Shown here piece after piece: positions 20,635-50,977 of a stretch of 61,312 bases of DNA (positions are counted from its first letter, which is position 1; each line of letters opens with the position of its first letter). Under the pieces are notes generated by a model that saw only the letters and a list, made by a program, of their open reading frames with translations, had not been told where the DNA came from and did not search any database. Position numbers and translations under genes: made by a program. Source of the stretch: a virus. Lineage: Duplodnaviria > Caudoviricetes. The stretch covers positions 1 through 61,312 of the IMG/VR virus record IMGVR_UViG_3300011115_000316; one strand, 5' to 3'.

Positions 20635-20714
20635 GCAGTCACTCAGTAGGCATTCGGTCTACCGGGTATCAACCCGGGAGAACGTGTTCTCCCAAGAAAC
20701 TAGGAGTTTTCACC

Positions 20715-21095
20715 ATGACAACCTTCCTCACCATCAATGCCAAGGCCTACACTGTGTTTGCAAAGATTGCCAAGCACATCGAAGCAAAAAGCCTTGGTTG
20801 GCAACTAACGCTGGCATCCGCCGGCATTCTCCCGGGCGACTATCGCCCGTTTGCAATTGCATACGTAGCCGAGGCCGGCGTGGCCCCTACGATGGGCCAA
20901 CGTGGCCTGACGTTCCAGAAGGACTCGAAGGAAGATTCACGAGTCAAGTATCTGGTGGCTGTCCTTACGGGCGCTGCCCAAGAGAAAGCTGCCGCCCGGT
21001 CTCTGTCCGCCGTGTCCGATCTGGACAAGGCGCTGAAGGCTTTCGGCAAGCTGTCCGCCGCCGACAAGAAAGCTTTCATGGCTAAGGCCAAGTGA
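20715..21095 (+). CDS. Hypothetical early protein
   Basis: TAGGAG RBS before ATG at 20715; palindrome A on both sides. Confidence 0.75.
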   Translation: MTTFLTINAKAYTVFAKIAKHIEAKSLGWQLTLASAGILPGDYRPFAIAYVAEAGVAPTMGQRGLTFQKDSKEDSRVKYLVAVLTGAAQEKAAARSLSAVSDLDKALKAFGKLSAADKKAFMAKAK

Positions 21096-21168
21096 GAACG
21101 ACTCGGGGGAACGGTTCCCCCGAGTTTGGCAGTGAATTCCCCCGTGCAATCCTGCGCGTGGGGATCTT

Positions 21169-21232
21169 TGCGGGGTTTCAGCCTGAAGCTTTGCCGCGTG
21201 AGCGGCGGGCTTTGGAGTGCAACCGCACTACT
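21169..21232 (+). ncRNA. Candidate structured RNA motif D, copy 1
   Basis: Shares CAGCCTG and TGGAGTGCAACCGCACTACT with copy 2; variable stem closed by GTGA loop. Confidence 0.5.
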
Positions 21233-21291
21233 TGGGGGAACGGTTCTCCCGAGTTTCTCTGCCCTGATTCAAAGGGATTGTTTGGCGTTCA

Positions 21292-21312
21292 AGGCGCACA
21301 TCTGCGCTACGC
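21292..21312 (+). repeat. 21-nt repeat C (second copy 26996-27016)
   Basis: AGGCGCACATCTGCGCTACGC, exact match, both copies just upstream of an AGGAG RBS. Confidence 0.9.
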
Positions 21313-21334
21313 TCTTACTTTTTAGGAGTACAGC

Positions 21335-21874
21335 ATGATTACCGCCATGCACGGCATCGGCGCGTATCGTGGACAGCGCAACCCGATCGCGCTGAGTCGC
21401 GCGCTCTCCGTCGCAATGTCCGGCGTGGAAATATGCGCATCCGATAAAGCTATCGGCGCGTTTGGGATCGTTATTTTGGGCGAGTCTCGGACCGTTTGGG
21501 ATCGCGATGTGTGGTCGGATTTGGATGCCAACGGCAATCGTATCGCCCATTACTTGGGCAATTGCATGGCTCCAAAATCGCAATGCGATTTTGAGAATTT
21601 TGCCGACGCCGCGCGCGAAAACGGCACCCTATACTGCGAGGTATGGATGCGTGCATCGGTGCTGCGCGCCGTGTGGATCAAACAATGGGCCGATGCGCGG
21701 ACAACGGCAGCTGCCCGGATTATCGCGCGCAACAGGCATGTGCCACTGTTAACAATCCGGGGACGCACCCGCATTGGAGAGGTGCTCGATGCACGGTTAG
21801 ATAGCGTAATTTTGCGCGAGGACACACACGGTACCAGCATGGGCGCTGCACTCATTGCAGCACTCAAGAAGTAA
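21335..21874 (+). CDS. Hypothetical cassette protein
   Basis: TAGGAG RBS; stop TAA fused to palindrome A. Confidence 0.75.
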   Translation: MITAMHGIGAYRGQRNPIALSRALSVAMSGVEICASDKAIGAFGIVILGESRTVWDRDVWSDLDANGNRIAHYLGNCMAPKSQCDFENFADAARENGTLYCEVWMRASVLRAVWIKQWADARTTAAARIIARNRHVPLLTIRGRTRIGEVLDARLDSVILREDTHGTSMGAALIAALKK

Positions 21875-21953
21875 CTGGGGGGAACGGTTCTCCCGAGTTT
21901 TGACAACGGGTTAGCTGTGTGCCCTCTCACGCAGCAATTTCTAGGAGCTAATC

Positions 21954-22307
21954 GTGAACAGAAACAAACTGATAGTCCTTGCCGCCCACATCCGGCACAT
22001 CCTCGCACCCGGGTGCGAGGTGGGGGACGTGTGTATCTCGGACATGGGGGTGTCGATAAAACTCGACACCATCAAAGGTCGGCCAGACGCCGACCTTGTC
22101 ACGCTGCATGCGTGGCTGGATGAAGAGCACCCCGATATCTGGCACTTGCGTGCCACACGTGCAGATGGGACGACGCAGGCACGCTGGAGGTGCCAAGCGG
22201 GTGATCTCAGCGAAGACAGGGACTACGAGTCCGATCACAGGGCCGTCTGGCTCTGCGCCACAGTCAACGGATGGGAGGGCGCGTTCTGGCTGCGCCCCAT
22301 CGAATAA
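21954..22307 (+). CDS. Hypothetical cassette protein
   Basis: TAGGAG RBS, GTG start; stop fused to palindrome A. Confidence 0.7.
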   Translation: MNRNKLIVLAAHIRHILAPGCEVGDVCISDMGVSIKLDTIKGRPDADLVTLHAWLDEEHPDIWHLRATRADGTTQARWRCQAGDLSEDRDYESDHRAVWLCATVNGWEGAFWLRPIE

Positions 22308-22385
22308 CTCGGGAGAACGGTTCCCCCGACAAATCCGTGCCGGTGCGGTTCACCGGTGGTTAGTTAGCTATTTTAGGAGTACATC

Positions 22386-23102
22386 ATGCCCGGAGCAATC
22401 CTTTATCAAGGCCCGTCGCTGTTCGACGGCAAGCCAATCGTGGTGATTGCCATATGGCAATCAGCAAACTCGAAGACTGGCGACATGCTGCAGACCTACA
22501 TCATGCGCTCAGACATTGACCCGCGAGACGCCAACAAGTACGGCGAGGACGAGTCAATCTGCGGCCAGTGCCAGCACCGGGGTACGCCGACTCTTGACCC
22601 CACCAAAGCCCTCGCAGAAGAGCGGACGTGCTATGTGAACATAGGCCAAGGGCCGCTGATCGTGTTCAACGAGTTTATCGCTGGCAAGTATCCGGACTAC
22701 GCAAACACGGGAGATCGCCGTATGACAGGCGCAGGGCGCAATGTGCGCATCGGCACCTATGGCGACGGTGCTGCGGCACCCGACTACGTGTGGGACGACC
22801 TGCTGTTCGGGGCCAAGGGCCACACAGCCTACAGCCACAACGGTGGCGACCCGCAGCGCTACATGGTCAGTGCCGACACACTGGCGCAGGCGACGGTGGC
22901 TTGGTCTAACGGCTACCGCACGTTCAGGGTAGTGCGCAGCGTGGCAGAGATCGACCGCAAGCACGAGGCGCTGTGCCCTGCGAGCAAAGAGGCAGGCTAC
23001 AAGGCGACATGCACCACCTGTCTGCTGTGCGCCGGCACATCGTTGCGGGCCAAGAGCATCGCCATACCCGTGCACGGCAGCGGCGCTGTGCACTTCGAGT
23101 AA
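22386..23102 (+). CDS. Cys-rich phage protein, putative metal/Fe-S binding (Gp88-like)
   Basis: N.KTG, CGQC...CY, RIGTYGD, CPA...CTTCLLC. Confidence 0.6.
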   Translation: MPGAILYQGPSLFDGKPIVVIAIWQSANSKTGDMLQTYIMRSDIDPRDANKYGEDESICGQCQHRGTPTLDPTKALAEERTCYVNIGQGPLIVFNEFIAGKYPDYANTGDRRMTGAGRNVRIGTYGDGAAAPDYVWDDLLFGAKGHTAYSHNGGDPQRYMVSADTLAQATVAWSNGYRTFRVVRSVAEIDRKHEALCPASKEAGYKATCTTCLLCAGTSLRAKSIAIPVHGSGAVHFE

Positions 23103-23179
23103 GTAACTCGGGAGTCGTTCCGAGAAACCGTGCCGGTGCGGTTCACCGGCGGTTAGTTAGCTATTTTAGGAGCTACATC

Positions 23180-23209
23180 ATGGATCAAATCAAGGGTATC
23201 GGCTACTGA
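23180..23209 (+). other. 9-codon minigene MDQIKGIGY behind a full repeat RBS
   Basis: TTTTAGGAGctacatcATG...TGA. Confidence 0.5.
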
Positions 23210-23236
23210 CGCCGGATGGATATCTGGCGTAAGGTA

Positions 23237-23291
23237 GCGGTTCCAGCCTGTAGGCCCGTGACAGGGGCCTATGGAGTGCAACCGCACTACT
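23237..23291 (+). ncRNA. Candidate structured RNA motif D, copy 2
   Basis: GCGGTT/AACCGC, CCA/TGG and TAGGCCC/GGGCCTA stems. Confidence 0.5.
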
Positions 23292-23339
23292 CGGGGGAAC
23301 GGTTCTCCCGACTTTTCGGGGCATTTTGTGACTGGGCAG

Positions 23340-23690
23340 TCTATTTAGTGACTAAAAAATTCTACCCACCGTTTGCCCCCCCTGTGCGTAGGTAGCGATC
23401 ACTCAAAAAAGCGTTAGGAATCAATAACATTTTTGCTCTACTACTACTACTAACCTATTTAAGATATATATATATAAGGAGAAATTCTCTTTTGTTTTTT
23501 CTTTCTCGGGAGAACCGTTCCCCCCAGTTGAAGAAAAAAGAAAAAAGAAAACTAATCTTTTGGTAAGTGAAGATAGTCTGAAAATCGATGGTATTTGCTG
23601 CCGGTATTTGCTAAGTCGTTGATTTTAAAGGAAACGACCCCGACACTTACCCCTGTAACCTGACCGTGACCGCTGGGTAGTTTAGAAAGC
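23340..23690. other. AT-rich non-coding region, candidate replication origin
   Basis: (CTA)n, (TA)n and A/T tracts; IHF consensus match at 23612-23624 on the minus strand. Confidence 0.45.
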
Positions 23691-23726
23691 GTGTGTTATG
23701 ATTACGCTCTTTTTCATGAGGTACCT

Positions 23727-24545
23727 ATGCGCGACGAAAACTACATCGACTATCACGAGACCTTTCCCACGCGCTGGGAGGTCACTGCCGCCTACGCCAT
23801 CTGTTGCGCCAAGTGCCACGAGACCAAACTCGCCAAGCACTTCCGCCGCACGTTGACCCGAGCGCAGGCTGCGGCCCGAGGGTACCTTGGCATGAGCAAT
23901 CAGGACGATCAGCCCAAGAAATTTAAGGGGGATCGACTCGCCACCGTCGAGTCGAAGTTCTGCGCCAAGTGCCAGCCGGGGCATTACAAGCCCAACGCTA
24001 TGACGATACCCGAGATGTATCTAGCCGCCTACGATGGCAAGGCATCGTTGGCCCGGGTCAATATCGACGTAGCGCTCAAGCGCAAGAAGGCAAGCGCCAA
24101 GATTAGCGCTGCCGTGGCAAACCGATGGGACAAGTGGAAAGCCGCACCGTGGGGACATGTGAGGGCTCGCTTAAGCGAGGAGTTGTTGATACTGACCCGG
24201 CGCATCAGCTACCACAACAAAAAGAAAGCACCCGCTGTTCTGATGGGCGCATTGACCGCGCTGCAGGCTGCGCTGACAGTGCTGCGAGCCCGGTGCACGC
24301 TCAATGCGCGGATACAGGCCCCGCTCGACCCCGCCACAACGTGGGAAGACCTACTTGGAACGCCTGTCATGGGCAACCTGCAGACGCTGTGGTCTGAGGT
24401 TCCGGCGGACGTTCTCATGCGCATGAAGAACGTGCCCCTGCTGCTCAACAAGGCGCAGCCGCTCGTCATGGACGGGTACGTAGCGCCGAACCAAGGGAGC
24501 ATAGACAGACTGAACATTGTCAAGGGGCATACGTACAAAGAATAA
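23727..24545 (+). CDS. Hypothetical protein with CxxC pairs
   Basis: TG-t-TATGAT at 23694-23702, GAGG RBS, CAKC twice; stop fused to palindrome A. Confidence 0.7.
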   Translation: MRDENYIDYHETFPTRWEVTAAYAICCAKCHETKLAKHFRRTLTRAQAAARGYLGMSNQDDQPKKFKGDRLATVESKFCAKCQPGHYKPNAMTIPEMYLAAYDGKASLARVNIDVALKRKKASAKISAAVANRWDKWKAAPWGHVRARLSEELLILTRRISYHNKKKAPAVLMGALTALQAALTVLRARCTLNARIQAPLDPATTWEDLLGTPVMGNLQTLWSEVPADVLMRMKNVPLLLNKAQPLVMDGYVAPNQGSIDRLNIVKGHTYKE

Positions 24546-24625
24546 CTCGGGAGAACGGTTCTCCCGACAAATCCGTGCCGGTGCGGTTCACCGGTGGTTA
24601 GTTAGCTAGTTTAGGAGTTTTCATC

Positions 24626-25087: not shown

Positions 25088-25142
25088 AGGAGAACAACCC
25101 GTGCCGGTGCGGTTCACCGGTAGTTAACTGGAGAATGAAACC

Positions 25143-25583: not shown

Positions 25584-26549
25584 ATGGCACACGAACTTAG
25601 CATCAAGCAAGACGGTCAAGTCGAATTCGCATACCTCGAGCGGGACGGCCTGCCGTGGCACGGTCTCGGCCAAGCGATGCCTATGGGGGCGAGCATCGAG
25701 GAGTGGCGCAAGCAGTCGGGTATGGACTGGCGCATCCAGCGTAGCAAGGTGCGCTACGCTGTCTCCCGCGACGAGGGCGCTGTGTTCGAGGAGATGGCTG
25801 ACCAGCACGTACTGTTCCGCTCGGACAGCAAGAAGGCGCTCGGGCTCGTGTCCGAGAAGTACCAGGTTGTGCAGCCTAGCGAGGTGATCGAGTTCTTCCG
25901 CGACATTGCCCGGGCAGGCGGGCTGGAGCTTAGTGCAGCGGGCACCATCTACGGGGGCCGGCGGTTCTGGGCAACGGCCAAGATAGGGGAGGCAAGCCCA
26001 ACCAGTGTGACGGACAAGATCGGCGGGTACTTGCTGATCAGCACCAGCGCTGATGGTTCACTGGCAACTGAGGTGAGGCGCACGACGGTACGTACGGTGT
26101 GCTCCAACACGCTGGCAATGGCGATGAAGGATGCGCCGGCCAGCATGAAGGTAACGCACAAGTCGGTGTTCGACCCCGAGGCCGTGAAGGAATTCATGGG
26201 GCTCAACGAGGCGGCGTGGGCAGCGTTCAAGCATCAGGTGGTGCGGCTGGCGAACAAGCCAGTGGTCCTCGAGGCGGCAGAGAAGATGACCGCAGACATC
26301 CTCGGAGGTGGCGACAAGGTGTACGCCACGGCGGGGTACAACAAGATCCTCGACCTGTTCCAAGGGATGGCGAAGGGGGCGCTCCTTGAGGGCGTGCAGG
26401 GTACGGCGTGGGGCTACATCAACGCCGTGACGGAGTACGCGGATTGGTTCTCTCGGGCACGTACGCATGAGAACCGCTTCGTGTCATCGCAGTGGGGCCC
26501 GGGCGCTGACCTCAAGCAGCGTGCACTGGACGCTGTGCTGGCTGTGTAA
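25584..26549 (+). CDS. DUF932-family phage/plasmid protein
   Basis: PWHGLG, Y.VVQ, GGRR.WA, RTVCSNTL, TAWG..NAVTEY.D. Confidence 0.85.
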   Translation: MAHELSIKQDGQVEFAYLERDGLPWHGLGQAMPMGASIEEWRKQSGMDWRIQRSKVRYAVSRDEGAVFEEMADQHVLFRSDSKKALGLVSEKYQVVQPSEVIEFFRDIARAGGLELSAAGTIYGGRRFWATAKIGEASPTSVTDKIGGYLLISTSADGSLATEVRRTTVRTVCSNTLAMAMKDAPASMKVTHKSVFDPEAVKEFMGLNEAAWAAFKHQVVRLANKPVVLEAAEKMTADILGGGDKVYATAGYNKILDLFQGMAKGALLEGVQGTAWGYINAVTEYADWFSRARTHENRFVSSQWGPGADLKQRALDAVLAV

Positions 26550-26624
26550 TTAACTGGGGGTTCCGACAAATCCGTGCCGGTGCGGTTCACCGGTGGTTAG
26601 TTAGCTAGTTTAGGAGTTTTCAAG

Positions 26625-26996
26625 ATGATACTAAATTTAACGCAGCATCCGGCAAGCCCGGAGCAACTCTCTGCCGGTGTGGTGGACCTGCCCACCGAAA
26701 TCCGCGAAGCAGTGCAGGCACTGCTTACCGTCAACACCCTGCCAACCCGGCAGGAGATAGAGGCGCGGTGCGCCGACATCGCCATGCTGGCGGCAACGGC
26801 ATTTGACGCGCACCCGGTTAGCGCAATGATCGGCGGAGCACCCTGGATGATGAGCTGCCTGGAGGGGGCAGTGCTTGATCAGGGTATCCAGCCCGTGTAT
26901 GCATTCTCAGTGCGTGAGTCGGTCGAGCAGCCGCAGCCCGATGGCAGCGTGCGCAAAATCAACGTGTTTCGGCACGTTGGGTTTGTGTCCGCATGA
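26625..26996 (+). CDS. Csx20-like small protein, candidate ring nuclease
   Basis: NLTQH...EQ, AMIGG, GIQPVYAFSVRE...DGSVRKINVFRHVGF resembles the recalled Csx20 pattern. Confidence 0.55.
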   Translation: MILNLTQHPASPEQLSAGVVDLPTEIREAVQALLTVNTLPTRQEIEARCADIAMLAATAFDAHPVSAMIGGAPWMMSCLEGAVLDQGIQPVYAFSVRESVEQPQPDGSVRKINVFRHVGFVSA

Positions 26997-27043
26997 GGCG
27001 CACATCTGCGCTACGCCAGAGGAAGTAGTACAGGAGAAAGCGA

Positions 27044-27417: not shown

Positions 27418-27839
27418 CCGGCTTTGACTCAAAGCGCCAAGCATCGCTCGACACGCTCGACCACCTCCCCTATCAGGGGCGTGAGTCAAGGCCCGAGGAG
27501 CTTGCCCAACAGAACCCTTGGCTAGAAGCAATTGACAACGCCTTGATCTGCACAATGATGGGGACGGCCGAGAGTTTTTCTTGCGCAGACGAAGCGCTGG
27601 ACGCACTGATCAAATGGCACGTAGCCACTGCTCTCGACCCGGCGGTGTCGGCGGCTGCACAAGTCCTGATTGATCGTGGGGCAGCAGTGGCCGAGCCGCT
27701 GACGGATGATGAACTGCGCGAATGCTTTACCAGCACAAACACAGCCGAACCACTGTCGGAAGGATGGCCGGGTCTGGAGCGTTTTGCCCGGGCCATTGAA
27801 GCCGCGCATGACATCGGCATCAAGGGAAGCAAGACATGA
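27414..27839 (+). CDS. Hypothetical protein
   Basis: ATGA overlaps; PLTDDE...FARAIEAAH.I module. Confidence 0.7.
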   Translation: MTGFDSKRQASLDTLDHLPYQGRESRPEELAQQNPWLEAIDNALICTMMGTAESFSCADEALDALIKWHVATALDPAVSAAAQVLIDRGAAVAEPLTDDELRECFTSTNTAEPLSEGWPGLERFARAIEAAHDIGIKGSKT

Positions 27840-28384
27840 AAACAACACTGAATCAAATCAGGGCGCACAGCCCGTGCCCAGATGGCTGGCGCAAGCTGCT
27901 GGCGCATCTCGGCAAGTCGCAGGCCGACGACGAGCCGCTGGCAATCACAACCATTCTTGATAGCAACGGGTTGGACGATGCACTGTGGTGCCTGCGTGCA
28001 GTTAAGGGCCATGACAGGGAGATCAGACTCTACGCAGTGTGGTGCGCAAGACAAGTGCAACATTTGATGACTGACCCGCGCAGCATTGCGGCTCTGGATG
28101 TTGCGGAGCGGTTTGCAACGGGTGCGGCCACGCAAGTTGAACTGACAGCGGCATGGGACGAAACAAGGGCTGCGACAGGGTTTGCGGCAGAGGATGCGGC
28201 AAGGGCTACGGCAAGGTTTGCGGCAGAGGATGCGGCAGGGGCTGCGGCAGGGGTTGCGGCATGGGCTACGGCAGAGGATGCGGCAAGGGCTACGGCATGG
28301 GCTACGGCAGGGGTTGAGGCAGGGGTTGCGGCAAGGGATGCACAGAAAATAAAGTTGCGTGAAATCTGTGGGGGCGCAAAATGA
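27836..28384 (+). CDS. Hypothetical protein with Ala-rich repeats
   Basis: PC.DGW.KLL...SNGLDDALW; AA.xA repeats encoded by short tandem units. Confidence 0.75.
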   Translation: MKTTLNQIRAHSPCPDGWRKLLAHLGKSQADDEPLAITTILDSNGLDDALWCLRAVKGHDREIRLYAVWCARQVQHLMTDPRSIAALDVAERFATGAATQVELTAAWDETRAATGFAAEDAARATARFAAEDAAGAAAGVAAWATAEDAARATAWATAGVEAGVAARDAQKIKLREICGGAK

Positions 28385-42512: not shown

Positions 42513-42663
42513 ACCGGGGCAGGGGTTCTTTGTCCCCTGCCTCGACGCCACCCCGGTCATTGAGGCGGGGCTGCGTGACGCGCTCTCCTACCGCATAAGG
42601 GCTACGGCCACCCCGGGCATTCGGGGTGGCTTGATCGGCGTCTGGTTCAGTCGATTGACTTAG
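42475..42663 (+). CDS. Hypothetical protein
   Basis: FPW..LE.GQGFFVP...GVWF.R; converges on the late arm. Confidence 0.6.
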   Translation: MVWKIVFPWEKLEPGQGFFVPCLDATPVIEAGLRDALSYRIRATATPGIRGGLIGVWFSRLT

Positions 42664-45600
42664 CCTCGTCCGTTGCTTTGCGCACCATCTCCGCAAGGCG
42701 GATCTTCATCTGGCGGGTCTCATCCAGCTTGGCCCGCTTCTCATCGCCGGTAAGGTTCGACGCCCGGATGGCGTTCTCAAACTTGGTGATCTGCTGCATG
42801 TTCGATGTGAAGTAGTCCGCCACGCCCGACTGTGCAAACTCTTCGGCGCGTTTGCTGACAAGCTCCTTGGCTTCGGCAACCCGCCCTTCAGACAGCATGC
42901 GGTCAACGGTGGTCTTGACTTTCTTGATATCGTCCATGCGCTCATACACAGCGTTGATGATGCCGCCGGCATCGTTGGGCTGGAACGAACTGCCGATCAC
43001 CGGCATGTCCGACAAACGCTTCGTGGTCTTCTCTGGCGACTCCCCGGTAGGCACACCCGTACTGAGCGTCTGCATGAGTGCCAGACCCATCGTGCCGGTG
43101 TAGCCGCTTACCAGCGCCTCGATCTTGATTGGCGACAGCCCGAGCCCGGAGCCCATCATCTTACTAATCTCACTGCTGCCCTCGCGGAACTGCTGCTCGG
43201 GCAGCACCGCTTGCTCCCGGCGAGACAGCGTGTCCCGTCCGGTGTAGAACGACTTGCCCATCCCGTACTCAATGGCTGGCTTGAGCGCTTGCGGAATGAA
43301 GTAAGAGGAGCCGCCGGGAACCGTTTGCAGCACGATTGTCTTGAGCGCCTTGAACGCCTCTTCCGACCCATGCTCATTTGCCAGCGAGTTGTAGATTGCT
43401 TCAGGCAGCGCCTTAAACAAGTAACCCACCTCAAATGGAATTGGAACCTTGATGGGCTCATCAATACCGGAAATGCGTATGAACCAGTTCCCGTACTTCT
43501 GCTCTGGCGTGGCGTTCTTGTAGGCCTCGTCATCCTGCATCATGGCAGCGTACGCCAAGGACGCACCAAACATAAGCGCACCGCGAGTGATCAGCTTCTC
43601 CTGAATCTTCAGGCGTTTGTCAAACGGCAGCTTGCCTGTCAACGCCTTGTACAGCACGTTCAGACCTTGAATCTGCGAGTTGAAGAACGGGATCAACGCG
43701 TTCGCCATGTGGATGCTAGGTGACGCACCGCGCTTGTTGAAGTTCATGGACTCCAACGCCATCAGCGTAGCCTCCATCTCCGACAACCCCTGCTTGATGT
43801 AGCTGTTGTACTGTGCGCGGCGGGTGGCAGCATCGGCTTCCATGTTGAGCGCTTCGGCCTTTGCGATCAGCGATCCGAGGTTGCCCTTGCCCGACAACAT
43901 GTCGTTCAAGATCTTGGTCATGGCCTCGCTGCTGCTGCTGCCTGCAAAAACTTGCCCGCCTGTGATGCCACGCTTCTCCAGCGTAGACTTGGTAGCAGAC
44001 TTGCCAAGTTCTTTCAGCGCACCGAGAACCGGGGCAATGTCCGCGCCCGACAAGAGCGTAGCGGCAATCGAGTCTCGGAATAACTGGCGTGCGGCATACG
44101 TGGGGCTGAGCGTCACGGCGCGGCGAAGGAATGTAGCCGGCATCCCCAGCGCCCGGACAAGTGCGGGAAGCTGGGTCGGAATACCCTGCATGCCCTTGAC
44201 CAGAAGATCTGCGGGAATGCCGGTCTTCGCATCTGTATCGACAATGGCGTGGTAATCCAAACCATCGACTTTGAACCGCACAATCTTTGGCTTCGCCGTA
44301 CCGGGCCCTTGCCGAATCTGCGCCAACCCCATGTCCTCAAGCTCGTTCATGGAGTTCTTGGTTGCCAGATTGCGCAACCCCATGTCTGTGATCAGCGCAG
44401 TGTTCTGCACTGAGCTTGTCAGGAAGTCCAGAATTGGACGGTCGCCGCCAACCAACTCGTGCAGGTACGGCTGATCGGCAACGCTGCCAATCCGAATGGG
44501 TGACTCGCCGCCGATGAGGAGTTCCGCTACGCCGCCCTTTTCCCGATAGAAGGGAATGTAGTCATTCTCTTTGGTCAGCCGTGCTGCGTGCTCTTTCGAT
44601 ATGGCCCCCGACTGCGCGAGGAAGCCGACCATGTTGCGGTTGTACTCGTTGTACACCTCACGGGCCTGCTTGAAGTTCTCCTCCAGCCCGGGCGTAGCGC
44701 GGATGCGTGCCATAGTGATGTCAAGCTGCGCCTCTGTCAGCTTATCACCAAAGTGCAGCGTATCGAAGCCTTTGTTCTTGGCACGGATACCAGCCAGATA
44801 CATTGTGAACAAGCGGTTGGCCGCAGCAGGGCTGCCAGCAGGGGCTTTCTTCAGGATGTCCACAACCTGTTTGATGTTGGCTCCGTCAACGCTCTCGACA
44901 ACATACTCTGTGCGCCCGTCTTTGCGCTGTATGGCAATCCGCTGAAGCGCCCCATTGGCAACCGACTGCGCGGTGTAGTTCATCCGTTGGTCGTACATGC
45001 GCAGGTCGTACATCATCTGCGAGCCCTTGAGCGATTCCATCCCCTTGGATATCCGATCAAGCGGTGCGAACCGGTCTACCGACTGCGTCTCAAGGCCAAG
45101 GAAACCACCCGCCGCTGCGCGAATCCTGTCGAGGGCACCGCGATCCTTGGCTACAACCTTGTCAACAATTGCCCCCGCTTCGGCAAGCCCCGGGTTAGCG
45201 TACTTTACGTCTTTGGGGCCGAGCAGGGAGCCTACTGACCTGAGTTTGGACTTCTCTACCGAAGGGGCGTTTTCTGCTTTTGCCGCGATGAATTTTTCAG
45301 CCAAGTCTAAAAAACGGTCAAGCATCGGGCCTTGCGGTGGGGTTTTTACCCCCACAAAGCGAAGTACGGCATCGATAAACCGACGCCACATGCTGCGCCC
45401 GTCCCACGTGTCTTCGCGCATGTGCGCTTGCACCGCCCGACTGCCCAGACCTTCAGCTAAAAATTCGTGAAGGTCGCCGTCATTGATGACCGCATTGTCA
45501 AAGGACTCGTCTGCCTTCACGCGCTCCATCATGCGGGTCAGTTCCGCTTTTGCCTTGCGTTGATCCGGGGTGAGTTCGCTGTCTGGCTTCTCTAGCTCAA

Positions 45601-48600
45601 ACATAGTGGCCGCATGCGCTGCCTCATGCACCACGGACTCTTCAGAGAGACCGGTGTTCTCGTTGATGCGAACCCGCATACCATCTTTAGAGATACTCCC
45701 GGGCGCGTTAGGTGCGTCCCGTGTTGTCTCCTCAACCACCTTGACATTGACGCCGTTGGCTTCAACAACAGCGGCAAGTTTGCCCGCTATGCGGCGTGCA
45801 ACATGGTTGGTGCTTTTTTCTGAGATGTTGGTGAGTACCGCTGCCAGATTATTGCTGCCCAACAGATCAACATTTGTCCCCGACAAAGGCGTGTCGTTGG
45901 GTCCAGAAGTACCGCGCAGCATCCCTTCAAAGTTGGCTTTGCCTTCGGTTTGTTGGTTTACTAAACTAGTATTTTCTGATTCATCCCTATATTCACCGCC
46001 ATACATTTCGCCTTCGGATTGCTGACTGACAGCACCCGTGACAGGCCGGCCAATCTGTGCCGCATCGGCCTTAGCCCCAGCCAGTTCATCCGCAACACTC
46101 TCCTGTTCCGCAGCCAGTCTGTCAGCAACTTTCAGATCCCGACGTACGGGGTCTACCCTTTTATACGCATCAACCTTTGCTTCAATAGTTGCCAGCTTGG
46201 CGCTCAAGTCCTCAACTTTTTTCTGGGCAATTTCAAACAACTGCCGTTCTTGTGCAAGCGCGTCAACCTTTGCTTTCGTTTCTTGTCGCAGCTTGTTAGC
46301 CGCTTCCATCTCTTCTTTGTTAATCGGCACATTGCGTTGCTTGACTCCGCGCGTCTCCGTCAGCCGCATGTCCGGTTTCGTGTATGTGCGTTTCTCAGTT
46401 TCTGCAAGGTTTCCCTCTTCGCCCGTATAAAACACTTTGGCGGGAAAAAGTTCTTTACGTGTTACAGGGCCAAGGGCACGCCCCTTTGTCCTGTCAAGTT
46501 GGGCTTGCTCTTCTTCGGACACGGCTTTTTTGTAGGTCTCCCGCGTCAACTGCTCAAGCGTTTGAGACCGCTCTTCGGAGGTCTCAATGGGGTCTATGGC
46601 AACGCCCCGCAAACTAGCAAGTTGTGTATCTCGCTTGACCAATTGGTCTTGCGCTTTACGGTAACGGGCCTGCAGGCTGTTGCGCTTGGCTTCCGTAAGC
46701 CCGGGGGCTTCCAACTGCTTTTTTAGGGCTTGAACTTTTCCAGACTCTTCACCACGAAGCCTGTATGCTGTTGCATAGCTGGCATCTTTGTTCTCCGCCT
46801 TCTTGCGCAAGTTTGCAAGATACGCAGTAAGCTGCGTTTGTGCGGCATCACGTTCTTCCTGTGACAGCTTCCCGTCATTGATTGCATCCTCAAACGCCCG
46901 TCGTTTGACCGGAGCGTCATCAATGGCATCCAGCATGGCGCGGCGCTTATCAAAAGAGATCCGTTGTCCGAGTAGCGAACTTAGGTCGCCGGTTAGCTTG
47001 TTGCGTTTCTTTTCAGCGGCCTGTTCTTCCGCACGTTCCTTGGTCCGATCCGGCGTAGGGGTGGGTGCAGACACTTGCGAGGCTGCTGCGGCCTGCTTGC
47101 GTTCCGCCGGGAACATGTCCTCTTGTATCTCAGCCACGCTTGCGTCTGCGGGCGCTTCTGTTTTTGTTTCAGCCAACACTTTCAACGGCACCAGCTTGTC
47201 AAGCGCTTTCTGCGTCTCCCCTTGGTCACGGGCGCGTTCGCTGTCGCTGAGCGTGTCTTGCAAGCCCTTCAGTTTAGTTGCCTCTGCAAACCGCTTGCTG
47301 GCCTGTTGCAGCTTCTCGGCGTTTTCAGGTTGCTCTTGCAATTTTGCCAAGTCGGCGTCGTACTTTTTCTTGGCGCTGTCGATGCGCGTTTTAAGCGCGG
47401 CGCGGGCTTGTTCTGCCGAATCAAGCTGCGTCTTGGCAACCCGCTGGCTTTTTGCGCCCGCGTTGCTTTGGGTAGGAGCAACTGCAAACTGCCGTTGCAA
47501 CGCGGCTACGGTCTCGCCGTACTTTTTCTTGGCGCTATCCATGCGGGTTTTCTGCTCACCGCCGCTGTAATTCTCTCGGGCGGCATCCATGCCCGCCTTC
47601 AACACAAGCCGCGCCCGCTCCATCGCCGCAGGCACTTCTTGACCAACGCTTCTGCTCTTGACCGGCGCGTTGTACGCGGCTTGCGCAGCAGCTACATTGC
47701 TATCGGCACGCTTCAACTGCACGCGCATGCGTTCTATGCTGTTAGCAAAAGGTTGCAGCGGCGCTCCGATATCGATGGCAAGCGCGTCCATTGCACGAGC
47801 GGAGTCCGCATACTCGTCTGCTATATCTTTAGCGCGGGCTGCTGTGGCTTTCCCAACGGGGCTTTCGTAGGCTTGTGCTTCTTCGGCAACCCCAAAGTAT
47901 TTCCGCAAGTTCTGCGTGGCGTCCCCAATACCCTGCCCAACATCCGAAGCAAGCCACCGAGCTACGGCCATCCGCGCTGCTGGATCGGCCATGATGGTTG
48001 ACTGGTTCTCTCCAACAAGACGCAGCAGACCTCTTTCCTTGTTGCTCAACTCAGGCTTTGCAAGTTTTACCAGCATGCCTTGTAGTTCACGCGGGGAGAC
48101 TTGCTGCTGTGACTGACGTTCAATCTGGGCAATTTGCTGCCGAAGATACTTCTCCGTCTCCGGCGCTGCGCGGCCTTGACGCACGCTGTTGAGCCACTCG
48201 GCAACATCGCCTTGATATGGGCGCAATGCCGGCAAGTTGGCTTCGATCTGATCCAGCAAAGTCGCTTGCGCTTCTGTCAGGCTGGGCAGATTGCGCACGC
48301 GTTCAATACCTTGCTGCAACCCCCGTGGGGAAGTTGACTTAACTTGCCCGGTCTCAATAATCTCACTTTGGCCGGCGTCCGCTGCGCCTTCCAAAGCGGG
48401 GCCAACTTCGGCGGCTTTGCCTTGTTCTTTCAGGTAGCGCATCCGATCAATGATTTCTAGCGCATCGCCCCTGCGCCCTTCTTGACGGGCCGCAATGTAA
48501 GCTTTGCTAAGCTGCTTCAGTTCCGTTTGAATTTCTTGCGTTAGCTCTTTCGTCTGCACTGCGCCAGTTCGTTTAAGTGGCGCTGCACCGGGGATCAGGT

Positions 48601-50977
48601 ATTGGCTACCTGCCGGGATTTCGGGCACCGGTTCTTCAGGCGTGCGGTCCATCGCAGCAAACGACTGCTCGAGCGTGCGGGGCTCTGTTGGCTCGACTGT
48701 GGTGTCTTCAACAGCCGGGGCAGCCGGGGCAGCCGCCTTCTTGCCCTTTGCTTTTTCCACCAGCGGTTTACCGCCTAGCATGTCCGCGTATTCTTGCGTG
48801 AACCGATCCAGATTTGCAAGCCCTAGTCGCTGTGTCAACGAACTAAGAAAAGCGGGCAGTCGATTTTCAGCAGCGGTTTTATTTAGCTGATCAAGCAAGT
48901 CTGCGCCAAAAAGTGCAGTTAGCGTTGGGTTGTTTTTACCGGAACCAAAATCGTAATCTTGGAGACCGCCTGTGGTTTGGTTCTCCATCCGAATATGATC
49001 TGGGGCTACACTTACCTTTACTTTGTCCCCTTTTTGGTTTGTAAATAGAAGATGCGCTCTGTCTTCCGTAACACGCAGTTGTTGCAACGCAGCTTTGGGC
49101 GTAACTGCTATGGGTGTCTTAAAGCTGTACGTCGGATATTGCCCATCATTTTCGATGGTGTACGCCCCGTAATCCAGTGTAACGGTAGGCGACCACATAG
49201 TGTCGGGGTCTGTGGGCGGCGTAGCTCTTGTGACTGTTGGCTCGGTGCCCACCGTTTTCTTACCCTTTGTTTTCGTAACAGGGGTAGCTACTTCTCCGGC
49301 CAGTTCTTCCTGCGCCAGTCGTTGCTGCAGCATTTCCAAGAAGAACGCGTTCTCTTCCAGTGTCAACCCCGGAATCTGCTCGTTGTTTGCCACCATCTCA
49401 GCCGCAACTTCAGGCGAGCCCATGATGGCTTCTACGTGCGACTGGATCTCTTCCATGCGCTCGGGCGCTGCTGCTGCAGGAATAACAAATGGGGCCGGCG
49501 CGGACACCGTACCTTCCGCAGCTTGCGCTTTGGTCAAGGGCGCAGGAGCCACAGGGGCAACGGGTGCAGGAGCCACAGGGGCAACGGGCGCAGGAGCCAC
49601 AGGAGCCACAGGGGCAACGGGTGCAGGAGCCACAGGAGCCCCGGGTGCAACGGCAGCCGCAGGGCGGAAGTCAACCCCGGGGTGCAGTTGTCGTACACGG
49701 CGGATCTCGTCCACCAGTGGCTGCATAGTCTCTTTGGCGTACGTATCCCGGGCTACACGCGCATCCTTGGCGTCTGCTACGGACAGCGGGTCTTTCTCTG
49801 CACTGAGTGCCTTGACGGCTTGATTGAGCCGTTGCATCTCGACGTTGGCCGCAACGTAGTCGGCCCGCAGCTTTGCGGCATATGCGGGATCTGCATCCGC
49901 AGCCATCTTTTGCTGCGCTGCAGCCGCTTCTTGCTGTTGCTGAACCGTTGCGGCATATGCATCCGCAGCCATCTTTTGCTGCGCTGCAGCCGCTTCTTGC
50001 TGTTGCTGAACCGTTGCGGCTTGAGCGGCATCTGCCTCTTGCTTCGCCGCAACTACGTCCCTTGCCCCACTGCGAGCTGACAACCGACCCACCGCGCCGA
50101 GTGGTGCCAGCAGCCCCACCTGATACGCGGTCTCGCCGTATTCTTCGAGTGCGTCTGGACTTGTAAGTGACAGGCCGGCCTGTGCCCGCTCCAGCATCTG
50201 CTGGGTAATCTCGGTGGGGATCTCGGCCAGAGCGCCGACACCCGTGCCTTTGGCAAGCACCATCAGCAACCGCTCGTCAGCCAGCTTGGCTGCGCCTGCG
50301 GCACTGCGCCCCAGCAGCGCTTCCATAGGAATGCCGGTCAGCTTCTGCACCAGCCGGCCACCAAACGGAATCAGGCTCGAGGCTACATCCAAGCCTGCCT
50401 GCGGCACCGCAGCAGCCAGTGCGCGACCTGAACTAACCGGGACGCCCTCTTGCGCTTGCCGTTCAATGTTGCCACTAAACTGCTGCGCCAGAGCCGGTAT
50501 CAGCGCACCGCCAATGCCGCCAATGGTGGCACCAACAGGACCGAACGGAGCCCCCGCCATCGCCCCGAGTCGCGCACTACCTGCCATTGCAACTAGGTTG
50601 GGTGCTTGTTCCGCAAGTGCCGCTGGAATCTGGCTTAACGCTTCGCCTGCCGCAGACAGCACGCCGTCTTTGTTGTATGCGTCTTTGACTTTTTGCAAGC
50701 TGACTTGCTCAGCATACTTCTTGTTTAGCGCTTCGCCGCGCTCGAGCCCTGCGCGTGCTGCCTCTTCGGCATCCCCGGTGAGAGCCCCATACGCAGTCCG
50801 CCCGCTGGAGCTGATGGACTCGACGCCTTTGCCTAGAGCCGCGCCAATCCCAGTTTTTGGTTTAGGGCCTAGTTCTGGGTGCTGCGCAATGATGCGTGCT
50901 TTTGCCGTACTCGGATCAACTTCATCCGGTATATTCTTGACAAGAGTACCGTCAGGAAGTTGGATTGAGTATGGCAT
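42647..50977 (-). CDS. Large polyvalent internal virion/ejection protein (HExxH peptidase-like domain; LPD38-like C-terminus)
   Basis: 2776 aa; VHEAAH...EF.AE; DYIPFYR, IPFFN..IQG, PIPFEVG. Confidence 0.75.
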   Translation of the reverse strand: MPYSIQLPDGTLVKNIPDEVDPSTAKARIIAQHPELGPKPKTGIGAALGKGVESISSSGRTAYGALTGDAEEAARAGLERGEALNKKYAEQVSLQKVKDAYNKDGVLSAAGEALSQIPAALAEQAPNLVAMAGSARLGAMAGAPFGPVGATIGGIGGALIPALAQQFSGNIERQAQEGVPVSSGRALAAAVPQAGLDVASSLIPFGGRLVQKLTGIPMEALLGRSAAGAAKLADERLLMVLAKGTGVGALAEIPTEITQQMLERAQAGLSLTSPDALEEYGETAYQVGLLAPLGAVGRLSARSGARDVVAAKQEADAAQAATVQQQQEAAAAQQKMAADAYAATVQQQQEAAAAQQKMAADADPAYAAKLRADYVAANVEMQRLNQAVKALSAEKDPLSVADAKDARVARDTYAKETMQPLVDEIRRVRQLHPGVDFRPAAAVAPGAPVAPAPVAPVAPVAPAPVAPVAPAPVAPVAPAPLTKAQAAEGTVSAPAPFVIPAAAAPERMEEIQSHVEAIMGSPEVAAEMVANNEQIPGLTLEENAFFLEMLQQRLAQEELAGEVATPVTKTKGKKTVGTEPTVTRATPPTDPDTMWSPTVTLDYGAYTIENDGQYPTYSFKTPIAVTPKAALQQLRVTEDRAHLLFTNQKGDKVKVSVAPDHIRMENQTTGGLQDYDFGSGKNNPTLTALFGADLLDQLNKTAAENRLPAFLSSLTQRLGLANLDRFTQEYADMLGGKPLVEKAKGKKAAAPAAPAVEDTTVEPTEPRTLEQSFAAMDRTPEEPVPEIPAGSQYLIPGAAPLKRTGAVQTKELTQEIQTELKQLSKAYIAARQEGRRGDALEIIDRMRYLKEQGKAAEVGPALEGAADAGQSEIIETGQVKSTSPRGLQQGIERVRNLPSLTEAQATLLDQIEANLPALRPYQGDVAEWLNSVRQGRAAPETEKYLRQQIAQIERQSQQQVSPRELQGMLVKLAKPELSNKERGLLRLVGENQSTIMADPAARMAVARWLASDVGQGIGDATQNLRKYFGVAEEAQAYESPVGKATAARAKDIADEYADSARAMDALAIDIGAPLQPFANSIERMRVQLKRADSNVAAAQAAYNAPVKSRSVGQEVPAAMERARLVLKAGMDAARENYSGGEQKTRMDSAKKKYGETVAALQRQFAVAPTQSNAGAKSQRVAKTQLDSAEQARAALKTRIDSAKKKYDADLAKLQEQPENAEKLQQASKRFAEATKLKGLQDTLSDSERARDQGETQKALDKLVPLKVLAETKTEAPADASVAEIQEDMFPAERKQAAAASQVSAPTPTPDRTKERAEEQAAEKKRNKLTGDLSSLLGQRISFDKRRAMLDAIDDAPVKRRAFEDAINDGKLSQEERDAAQTQLTAYLANLRKKAENKDASYATAYRLRGEESGKVQALKKQLEAPGLTEAKRNSLQARYRKAQDQLVKRDTQLASLRGVAIDPIETSEERSQTLEQLTRETYKKAVSEEEQAQLDRTKGRALGPVTRKELFPAKVFYTGEEGNLAETEKRTYTKPDMRLTETRGVKQRNVPINKEEMEAANKLRQETKAKVDALAQERQLFEIAQKKVEDLSAKLATIEAKVDAYKRVDPVRRDLKVADRLAAEQESVADELAGAKADAAQIGRPVTGAVSQQSEGEMYGGEYRDESENTSLVNQQTEGKANFEGMLRGTSGPNDTPLSGTNVDLLGSNNLAAVLTNISEKSTNHVARRIAGKLAAVVEANGVNVKVVEETTRDAPNAPGSISKDGMRVRINENTGLSEESVVHEAAHAATMFELEKPDSELTPDQRKAKAELTRMMERVKADESFDNAVINDGDLHEFLAEGLGSRAVQAHMREDTWDGRSMWRRFIDAVLRFVGVKTPPQGPMLDRFLDLAEKFIAAKAENAPSVEKSKLRSVGSLLGPKDVKYANPGLAEAGAIVDKVVAKDRGALDRIRAAAGGFLGLETQSVDRFAPLDRISKGMESLKGSQMMYDLRMYDQRMNYTAQSVANGALQRIAIQRKDGRTEYVVESVDGANIKQVVDILKKAPAGSPAAANRLFTMYLAGIRAKNKGFDTLHFGDKLTEAQLDITMARIRATPGLEENFKQAREVYNEYNRNMVGFLAQSGAISKEHAARLTKENDYIPFYREKGGVAELLIGGESPIRIGSVADQPYLHELVGGDRPILDFLTSSVQNTALITDMGLRNLATKNSMNELEDMGLAQIRQGPGTAKPKIVRFKVDGLDYHAIVDTDAKTGIPADLLVKGMQGIPTQLPALVRALGMPATFLRRAVTLSPTYAARQLFRDSIAATLLSGADIAPVLGALKELGKSATKSTLEKRGITGGQVFAGSSSSEAMTKILNDMLSGKGNLGSLIAKAEALNMEADAATRRAQYNSYIKQGLSEMEATLMALESMNFNKRGASPSIHMANALIPFFNSQIQGLNVLYKALTGKLPFDKRLKIQEKLITRGALMFGASLAYAAMMQDDEAYKNATPEQKYGNWFIRISGIDEPIKVPIPFEVGYLFKALPEAIYNSLANEHGSEEAFKALKTIVLQTVPGGSSYFIPQALKPAIEYGMGKSFYTGRDTLSRREQAVLPEQQFREGSSEISKMMGSGLGLSPIKIEALVSGYTGTMGLALMQTLSTGVPTGESPEKTTKRLSDMPVIGSSFQPNDAGGIINAVYERMDDIKKVKTTVDRMLSEGRVAEAKELVSKRAEEFAQSGVADYFTSNMQQITKFENAIRASNLTGDEKRAKLDETRQMKIRLAEMVRKATDEAKSID

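Follow-up and report, generated by a model that had tools for sequence, protein, structure and literature searches.

Cyclic tetra-adenylate (cA4) is a second messenger made by the Cas10 protein of type III CRISPR systems. AcrIII-1, also named Crn2 (DUF1874, PF08960), has been described as a small dimeric viral ring nuclease that degrades this messenger and acts as an anti-CRISPR. Csx20, a small CRISPR-associated protein, has been shown by experiment to be a cA4 ring nuclease as well, 1 µM of the enzyme degrading cA4 fully (Hoikkala et al., PMC12409355), and its conserved histidine and arginine are named in a review (PMC8284326) as what had marked it as a likely ring nuclease. Csx20 has also been reported from phages, the published version of the former study counting four such genomes and its preprint five, of 28,114 genomes. 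A further preprint (10.64898/2026.07.27.740549) describes csx20 homologues in acr-aca14 operons and suggests the co-option of a cas gene; in Pasteurella multocida the csx20-aca14 operon, in which aca14 encodes a ribbon-helix-helix (RHH) protein, is given there with a Cas5-IF homologue downstream. The gene considered here lies at positions 26625 to 26996 of a stretch of phage DNA of 61,312 bp, referred to below as the window, which is one whole virus record of IMG/VR (IMGVR_UViG_3300011115_000316). It encodes a Csx20-like protein that is read here, with a probability of about 0.6, as a cA4 ring nuclease for counter-defence against type III CRISPR. The gene and its translation start are as follows.

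26625-26996, plus strand: Csx20-like gene (Pfam MJ1673 family), ATG start, 123 amino acids, stop codon included, from the list of open reading frames
26612-26616, plus strand: Shine-Dalgarno sequence AGGAG, 8 nt 5' of the ATG, read from the DNA

The original prediction, made by a model from the DNA letters alone, had proposed a phage-encoded Csx20-like protein with a strong ribosome-binding site, and both the reading frame, listed with exactly these ends, strand and start codon, and the AGGAG motif bear it out. That the gene is encoded by a phage agrees with the record, which has a completeness rating of 95% and carries blocks on the minus strand with the large terminase, the portal protein, a virion structural protein and a lytic tail or internal virion protein, and a block on the plus strand (~20.3-42.5 kb) in which many small genes are followed by DNA polymerase, helicase and primase. 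The Csx20-like gene sits within the small plus-strand genes upstream of the replication genes, a position from which early expression may be expected. The lack of a cas context, likewise proposed, holds for the window, with no Cas10-palm match, no CRISPR-like array and no cas match among the neighbours tested, and the separation from AcrIII-1 is upheld by a search with PF08960, to which nothing in the window matches at E <= 0.01. The link of Csx20 to the breakdown of cyclic oligoadenylates, on which the prediction drew, is the activity now demonstrated in PMC12409355.

Homology, conserved residues and predicted fold

Searches with the single sequence reveal the relationship to Csx20 mainly at the C-terminus. 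Neither Pfam-A, in a copy predating PF27247, nor PHROGs gave a match for the 123-residue protein, and the sole match in NCBIfam is CAS_Csx20 (NF040559; E 5.1e-7), with residues 82-120 aligned to positions 83-121 of the 124 of the profile; the six-frame search scored this model at 29.5 bits. PADLOC returned two Csx20 models (E 7.7e-8 and 1.4e-5) and a model named 'Csx15/20/peptidase' (E 2.2e-4), all three confined to the C-terminal 40 residues. In a large protein collection, PF27247.1 is the precomputed label of the window's protein and of 120 of the 120 relatives listed; the ESM Atlas names PF27247 'MJ1673', and the nearest clusters there are 50-82% viral. According to PMC3973734, MJ_1673 itself is a small protein that accompanies the type III-A systems of Methanococcales, and NF040559 scores above its cut-off in Methanocaldococcus jannaschii, a member of the control panel. 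Sequence searches of the PDB gave only chance-level matches for the single protein (E >= 0.74) and none for a profile of its relatives.

The comparison of whole families extends the match to the full length of the protein. A set of bona fide Csx20 proteins was drawn from an NF040559 search of 301 genomes of one phylum, 16 of which held a full-length match above the cut-off (138.6-165.1 bits); these 16 proteins were aligned, one more match above the cut-off being left out on account of a stop codon inside it, and a profile of the phage-type family was built from 68 diverse relatives of the phage protein. Aligned with hhalign, the two profiles match with a probability of 97.2% (E 2.9e-11) over 109 columns, positions 3-122 of the phage-type query on 2-123 of the Csx20 template; a profile comparison was among the checks named with the original prediction. 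Detection is reciprocal, 68 of 68 phage-type proteins and 16 of 16 Csx20 proteins being matched by the profile of the other group, and some clade members align with the Csx20 model over positions 2-121 or 7-124. The two kinds can occur in one genome, as in G001, where a canonical Csx20 (157.3 bits) encoded 3.3 kb from a Cas10-palm match is found together with a phage-type member (36.1 bits, model positions 7-124). Judged by sequence, the phage protein is almost certainly a true full-length homologue of Csx20 that belongs to a distinct clade below the NCBI equivalog threshold. Of the name Csx20-like, the full-length homology stands, on the profile match, the residues and the order of the fold; membership of the curated family does not, the protein belonging instead to a separate mobile clade.

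The residue pattern given for Csx20 in the original prediction is present in the translation, in which H8, E13 and Q14, M68-I69-G70-G71, G87, P90-V-Y-A93, R97, E101, G107, K111, F115, H117 and F120 can be placed, and most of it is nearly invariant in the 68 relatives (H8, Q14, M68, I69, G70, G71, A93, R97, G107, K111, F115, H117 and F120). In the merged alignment, the positions that are at least 80% conserved and identical in both groups are, with the phage-type residue given first and that of Csx20 second, H8/H7, Q14/Q13, L34/L33, P40/P41, G71/G72, P90/P91, Y92/Y93, R97/R98, F115/F116, H117/H118 and F120/F121. The phage protein retains every polar residue that is strongly conserved in Csx20, H8, Q14, R97 and H117 corresponding to the invariant H7, Q13, R98 and H118. 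Among single-domain members H8, H117 and R97 are 97-99% conserved, H8 being found in 67 of 68; from the CARF topology, H8 presumably stands at the 'motif I' position.

An AlphaFold2 model of the phage protein, computed from the alignment of 68 sequences, has a predicted local distance difference test score (pLDDT) of 97.3 and a predicted TM-score of 0.85. Its elements follow one another as strand 2-4, helix 12-16, strand 19-21, helices 24-34 and 42-58, strand 66-68, helix 73-85 and strands 89-103 and 109-122; a model of Csx20 from the alignment of 16 sequences (pLDDT 91.7) has the same order, b1-a1-b2-a2-a3-b3-a4-b4-b5. The fold modelled in this way is a CARF-like core in which a five-stranded sheet is flanked by helices. 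A Foldseek search, which had been suggested as a further check, found no match in the PDB at E <= 0.001, and the weak list below that level names Sso2081 (probability 0.87, TM-score 0.42), Sis0455, Cam1, Csm6 and SAVED proteins. The model of a bona fide Csx20, run as a control, also lacks a PDB match at E <= 0.001 and has the same weak CARF neighbours (Sso2081, Sis0455, Cam1 and Csm6). Because the genuine Csx20 behaves alike, the missing significance does not count against the assignment, and the null result, considered as weak evidence against the fold, was dropped. In BFVD there were three significant matches, all of them uncharacterised viral proteins.

The phage protein is also predicted to form a homodimer, in line with the dimer model envisaged by the original prediction. 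Modelled as a pair together with two molecules of adenosine monophosphate (AMP), it scored 0.71, the best of three controls scoring 0.00, and the runs had a contact agreement of at least 96% and a pLDDT of the partner of at least 90. In the calibration, 20 of 30 proteins with a solved structure of two identical chains passed the mark used for a dimer, as did 1 of 23 with a solved single-chain structure. This calibration is approximate here, as the use of an alignment of our own and of AMP departs from the calibration runs, and solved CARF dimers may have aided the pass. The interface is predicted to involve residues 37-45, 69-80, 92-96 and 118-123, of which 69-80 comprise the conserved I69-G-G-A-P loop and the helix that follows it, and Y92 and F94 are also part of it.

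The proposed role in counter-defence and competing explanations

As a small CARF-like protein of the Csx20/MJ1673 family, the phage protein would act as a homodimer and would bind cA4 on a face made up of two loops, the one after strand 1 with H8 and the glycine-rich one after strand 3. By homology with Csx20, cA4 would be cleaved without metal to linear products. The phage would make the protein early in infection, draining cA4 before effectors of the Csx1 type switch on, and the net effect would be that of an anti-type III CRISPR ring nuclease. The analysis itself provides the homology, the residue conservation, the fold order, the predicted dimer, the mobile distribution and the acr-type neighbours of two relatives as a basis for this proposal; the ligand, the catalysis, the timing of expression and the effect on immunity are steps that we infer.

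The clade is large. An exhaustive HMMER search found 1823 representatives of 50%-identity clusters at E <= 0.001, or 1354 if the limit is set at E <= 1e-10; in IMG/VR, a single pattern scan confirmed 197 stretches that encode a member; and in species-representative genomes there are 67 loci, from Betaproteobacteria to Cyanobacteria, Bacteroidota, archaea and many Patescibacteria. Cultured phages are represented only by Rhodothermus phage RM378, Fusobacterium phage JD-Fnp4 and Pasteurella phage Pm86, and 99 plasmid records match, mostly at 26% identity and from Enterobacterales. The clade is mostly mobile and separate from canonical Csx20. The N- or C-terminal extensions of 10 longer relatives contain no Pfam domain.

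Some members of the clade are tandem fusions of two domains, both near full length, which make up 16 of the 150 best representatives (P0121-P0218). The histidine at the H8 position is lost in exactly one domain in 10 of these 16 and in both domains in one, four keep it in both, and in one only the second domain is readable, which has no histidine there. In most tandem forms the histidine of the N-L-T-Q-H motif is replaced by phenylalanine or tryptophan in one domain only. A loss restricted to one domain would fit a two-fold site built from the two domains, with the histidine functional rather than structural. The same counts can be turned into an argument for a sponge, that is, for a dimer that takes cA4 out of circulation by tight binding and cleaves little or none of it, in the manner of Csx15, a related small CARF protein that PMC13148439 describes as an effective cA4 sponge whose nuclease activity is very slow: since 10 of 16 tandem forms have lost the histidine in one domain and one in both, binding without it would be tolerated. 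We nevertheless consider a sponge quite unlikely, as the conservation of H8, H117 and R97 in single-domain members is what would be expected of catalytic residues, and sponging is held in PMC13148439 to be a poor strategy against the large amounts of cyclic oligoadenylate made by type III systems, with Csx15 itself reported there as not seen in phages.

A role of the phage protein as an anti-CRISPR ring nuclease is also suggested by the company that two of its relatives keep. In Pasteurella phage Pm86 (locus L003, 309-2446) a csx20-like remnant, unannotated in the record, consists of the C-terminal 66 residues without an N-terminal half and is 53% identical to the phage protein over residues 66-123. 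It is followed by an open reading frame of 71 codons, whose product, read from the sequence by eye, looks like an RHH-type protein, and then by a gene for a Cas5f/Cas8-5f-like protein, an arrangement that matches the csx20-aca14 operon as described in preprint 10.64898/2026.07.27.740549. In a Thauera genome (L089, 7995-10121) the csx20-like gene stands two genes upstream of a Cas5f-like gene. The solo Cas5f/Cas8-5f-like proteins of Pm86 and Thauera are ~406 residues long and lie on mobile DNA. The copy of Rhodoferax antarcticus, 66% identical to the phage protein, is found among small unidirectional prophage-like genes in a genome whose type III-B locus is complete and comprises a Csx1-type CARF effector, Cmr1, Cas10, Cmr3, Cmr4 and Cmr6. 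Just upstream of this Csx1-Cmr locus (L186, 2789-4348), two adjacent ATPase-like genes (PADLOC mad3/mad8, AriA) were observed.

Several points weigh against the proposed role. The divergence from canonical Csx20 is large: the phage protein reaches 30.1 bits with NF040559, whose curated cut-off is 70, so that the equivalog threshold is missed; identity in the hhalign profile alignment is 16%; and the cross-profile scores are 7-34 bits against 138-193 bits within each group, for which reason the function may have drifted. In the literature searched, no biochemical or genetic test of any clade member was found. No neighbour in the window is recognisable as an acr or aca gene. Neighbours are not conserved either, only four of the 14 in the window having a relative in 147 related loci, three of them in one locus each and one in four loci. 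De novo clustering of the neighbours yielded no dominant partner, and terminase genes lie within 3 kb in 20 loci; neighbouring frames were taken by picking the longest open reading frames, so that some spurious antisense frames are included. The Csx20-like gene behaves as a free single-gene cassette.

The remaining points of this kind concern the carriers, and they are also what speaks for a wider target. A Cas10-palm search, which covered 50 of the 67 genome loci, found a match in 17 of the 50 carrier genomes and none in the other 33; weak matches are unreliable because the Pfam Cas10 model also matches Escherichia coli. Distant relatives with 26% identity occur on many conjugative and mobilizable plasmids of Enterobacterales. 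Given the carriers without Cas10 and these plasmids, the carrier's own type III system is not always the target. It has to be asked whether the clade degrades cyclic tri-adenylate (cA3) or other signals, for example those of cyclic-oligonucleotide-based antiphage signalling systems (CBASS), as a general anti-signalling enzyme. Besides the 33 genomes and the plasmid copies, such a function could draw on the full degradation of cA3 by Csx20 at 10 µM enzyme reported by Hoikkala et al. (PMC12409355). The same report, however, finds canonical Csx20 specific for cA4 at low enzyme concentration; the conserved residues of Csx20 are all kept, with no sign of an altered pocket; and the pseudomonadotal carriers are, if anything, enriched for Cas10, which was counted in 5 of 12 of them as against 23 of 200 sampled Pseudomonadota (Fisher's exact test, one-sided, p = 0.012, uncorrected for relatedness), a suggestive difference in small numbers. 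This count takes in matches of at least 85 bits, a self-chosen threshold, together with the split type verified as Cas10 in Rhodoferax. A general anti-signalling enzyme is unlikely on these grounds, and cA4 remains the more probable substrate of the phage protein.

Copies in genomes of the Candidate Phyla Radiation (CPR) pose a separate difficulty. None of 18 such genomes (those named as Saccharibacteria, Paceibacterota, Patescibacteria or Uhrbacteria) has a Cas10-palm match, and their copies look chromosomal. A gene for a TrmB-type regulator is found near the copy in 13 genome loci, and some copies are also near prephenate dehydratase or tRNA genes. A protein that binds nucleotides or has a regulatory role in mobile elements and small-genome bacteria, and that has nothing but its ancestry in common with Csx20, might be expected to show this pattern of Cas10-less carriers, chromosomal placement and regulatory or housekeeping neighbours. 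In two Saccharibacteria loci (L136, 7995-10053; L137, 1332-3457), however, the next gene encodes an AAA-Csx3 protein of ~500 residues, which matches the PADLOC model Csx3-AAA at E 1.3e-45, has a C-terminal Cas_csx3 domain and is itself followed by a gene for a MYG1-type exonuclease; no Cas10-palm match was found in these two genomes. Csx3 is the ring-nuclease domain of Crn3. Because this protein adjoins the copy in both loci, the context points back to cyclic oligoadenylates. In phages, moreover, a single freely moving cassette with non-conserved neighbours is typical of an accessory counter-defence gene, and a function unrelated to defence is very improbable. The pairing with AAA-Csx3 keeps the theme of cyclic oligoadenylates, but does not explain why CPR cells without Cas10 should need it, and this too counts against the anti-CRISPR reading. 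A broader conjecture, to which we attach limited belief, is that the mobile Csx20 clade ranks among the most abundant viral anti-signalling families (at least 1823 clusters, many tandem pseudo-dimers) and reaches beyond the type III CRISPR systems of its carriers. If this were true, CPR episymbionts would keep a two-enzyme module that destroys cyclic oligoadenylates not made by themselves, or the signals would be others than cA4.

The setting of the gene in the phage genome

The features that adjoin the gene in the window are a preceding coding sequence and two repeated elements.

25584-26549, plus strand: DUF932 gene (phrog_1221; Pfam E 4.7e-47), the one immediately 5' of the Csx20-like gene
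26572-26607, plus strand: copy of a 36-nt upstream element 5' of the Csx20-like gene, from a search for near-exact repeats
26996-27016, plus strand: 21-nt element directly after the stop codon, 100% identical to 21292-21312, with a short imperfect hairpin

The DUF932 protein was considered as a functional partner and rejected, as it is near a Csx20-like gene in only one of 147 loci, 5 kb from the match. No gene for an RHH or helix-turn-helix (HTH) protein adjoins the Csx20-like gene in the window, and megablast with the 4.4 kb around the gene returned no record of a related phage.

The 36-nt element is present in four copies with 0-1 mismatch, all on the plus strand (22335-22370, 23128-23163, 24573-24608 and 26572-26607), where none would be expected by chance, and a fifth, degenerate copy lies at 25096-25126. 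The copy in front of the Csx20-like gene holds a 6-bp inverted repeat (26577-26582 and 26588-26593) with a spacer of 5 nt. At least three copies (22335, 24573 and 26572) end ~15-20 nt 5' of a ribosome-binding site and start codon, the start codons being those at 22386, 24626 and 26625, and the TAGGAGTTTTCA..ATG leader of the Csx20-like gene is also present at 20701 and 24612. The element was not found in 183 of the 185 loci compared, and the two that match (L001 and L002) are cut from the window itself. It does not resemble a sigma-70 site, sigma-70-like sites being no commoner in the upstream region than in shuffled sequences, and the upstream region shows no unusual RNA folding (z = 0.43). 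The element is a putative phage-specific promoter or operator, or alternatively a 5' leader, through which several small plus-strand genes could be co-regulated. The other copy of the 21-nt element (21292-21312) lies upstream of the gene at 21335, and the element may mark where a transcript ends or is processed, or may be part of the leader of the gene that follows.

Further repeats were observed in the same region. GC-rich palindromes of the CTCGGGAGAACGGTTCTCCCGA type occur in eight copies between small plus-strand genes from 20673 to 24565 (for example at 22308-22327 and 24546-24565) and often precede a copy of the 36-nt element; in appearance they resemble hairpin terminators or sites of processing. 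Downstream, on the plus strand, a gene at 27836-28384 encodes a 182-residue protein of phrog_18326, a family of unknown function, in which a 12-nt periodic repeat of ~14 copies (28112-28363) encodes an alanine-rich repeat of four residues in the C-terminal half. In the block of virion genes, an open reading frame of 2776 codons on the minus strand (42647-50977) has no PHROG match at E <= 1e-5 and adjoins the gene for an internal virion or tail protein of the lytic transglycosylase type; its product may be a giant ejected or internal protein.

Comparison with known systems

Since the activity of Csx20, its copies in phages and csx20 in acr operons have already been published, the phage gene is a further case of a known idea. 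What was not found in print, supplements lying outside the literature searched, is the size of the mobile clade, the tandem pseudo-dimers with one degenerate histidine and the pairing with AAA-Csx3 in CPR genomes. The clade is far commoner in uncultured phages, with 197 stretches in IMG/VR and 1823 clusters, than the published cases from cultured phages, four or five in number, would suggest. If the protein is active, it would add to the viral anti-CRISPRs a second structural class of ring nuclease beside AcrIII-1, which would be relevant to the frequency with which type III CRISPR signalling is overcome in nature and to the annotation of accessory genes in early regions of phage genomes. The claim is directly testable because the protein is small, its model is of very high confidence and the assay is easy.

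The closest described protein is Csx20 itself, with which the phage protein has in common a length of ~125 residues, the order of secondary-structure elements, profile homology over the full length, a shared set of His, Gln, Gly, Tyr, Arg, Phe, His and Phe positions and a predicted homodimer. It differs in that the 'YLP..L...WS.IPP' segment of Csx20 reads 'LLTF..LP' in the phage-type clade, and whereas Csx20 is known as a CRISPR-associated gene, the phage copy is encoded without cas genes or a type III locus. Csx16 and Csx15 are small CARF-like proteins that are grouped with Csx20, yet in PADLOC the Csx20 models score best, and Csx15 is presented in PMC13148439 as mainly a sponge not seen in phages. 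For Crn1 (Sso2081, Sis0455) there is no Foldseek match at E <= 0.001 and the TM-score is ~0.4. Crn1 proteins are also longer, at ~180 residues with an extra domain. AcrIII-1 serves as the functional model for the phage gene but is an unrelated family in sequence. The csx20 homologues of the acr-aca14 operons of Pasteurella multocida, for which the preprint likewise proposes an anti-CRISPR role, belong to the same clade; in contrast to those operons, the phage gene has no RHH or HTH neighbour and is preceded instead by the repeated 36-nt element specific to this phage.

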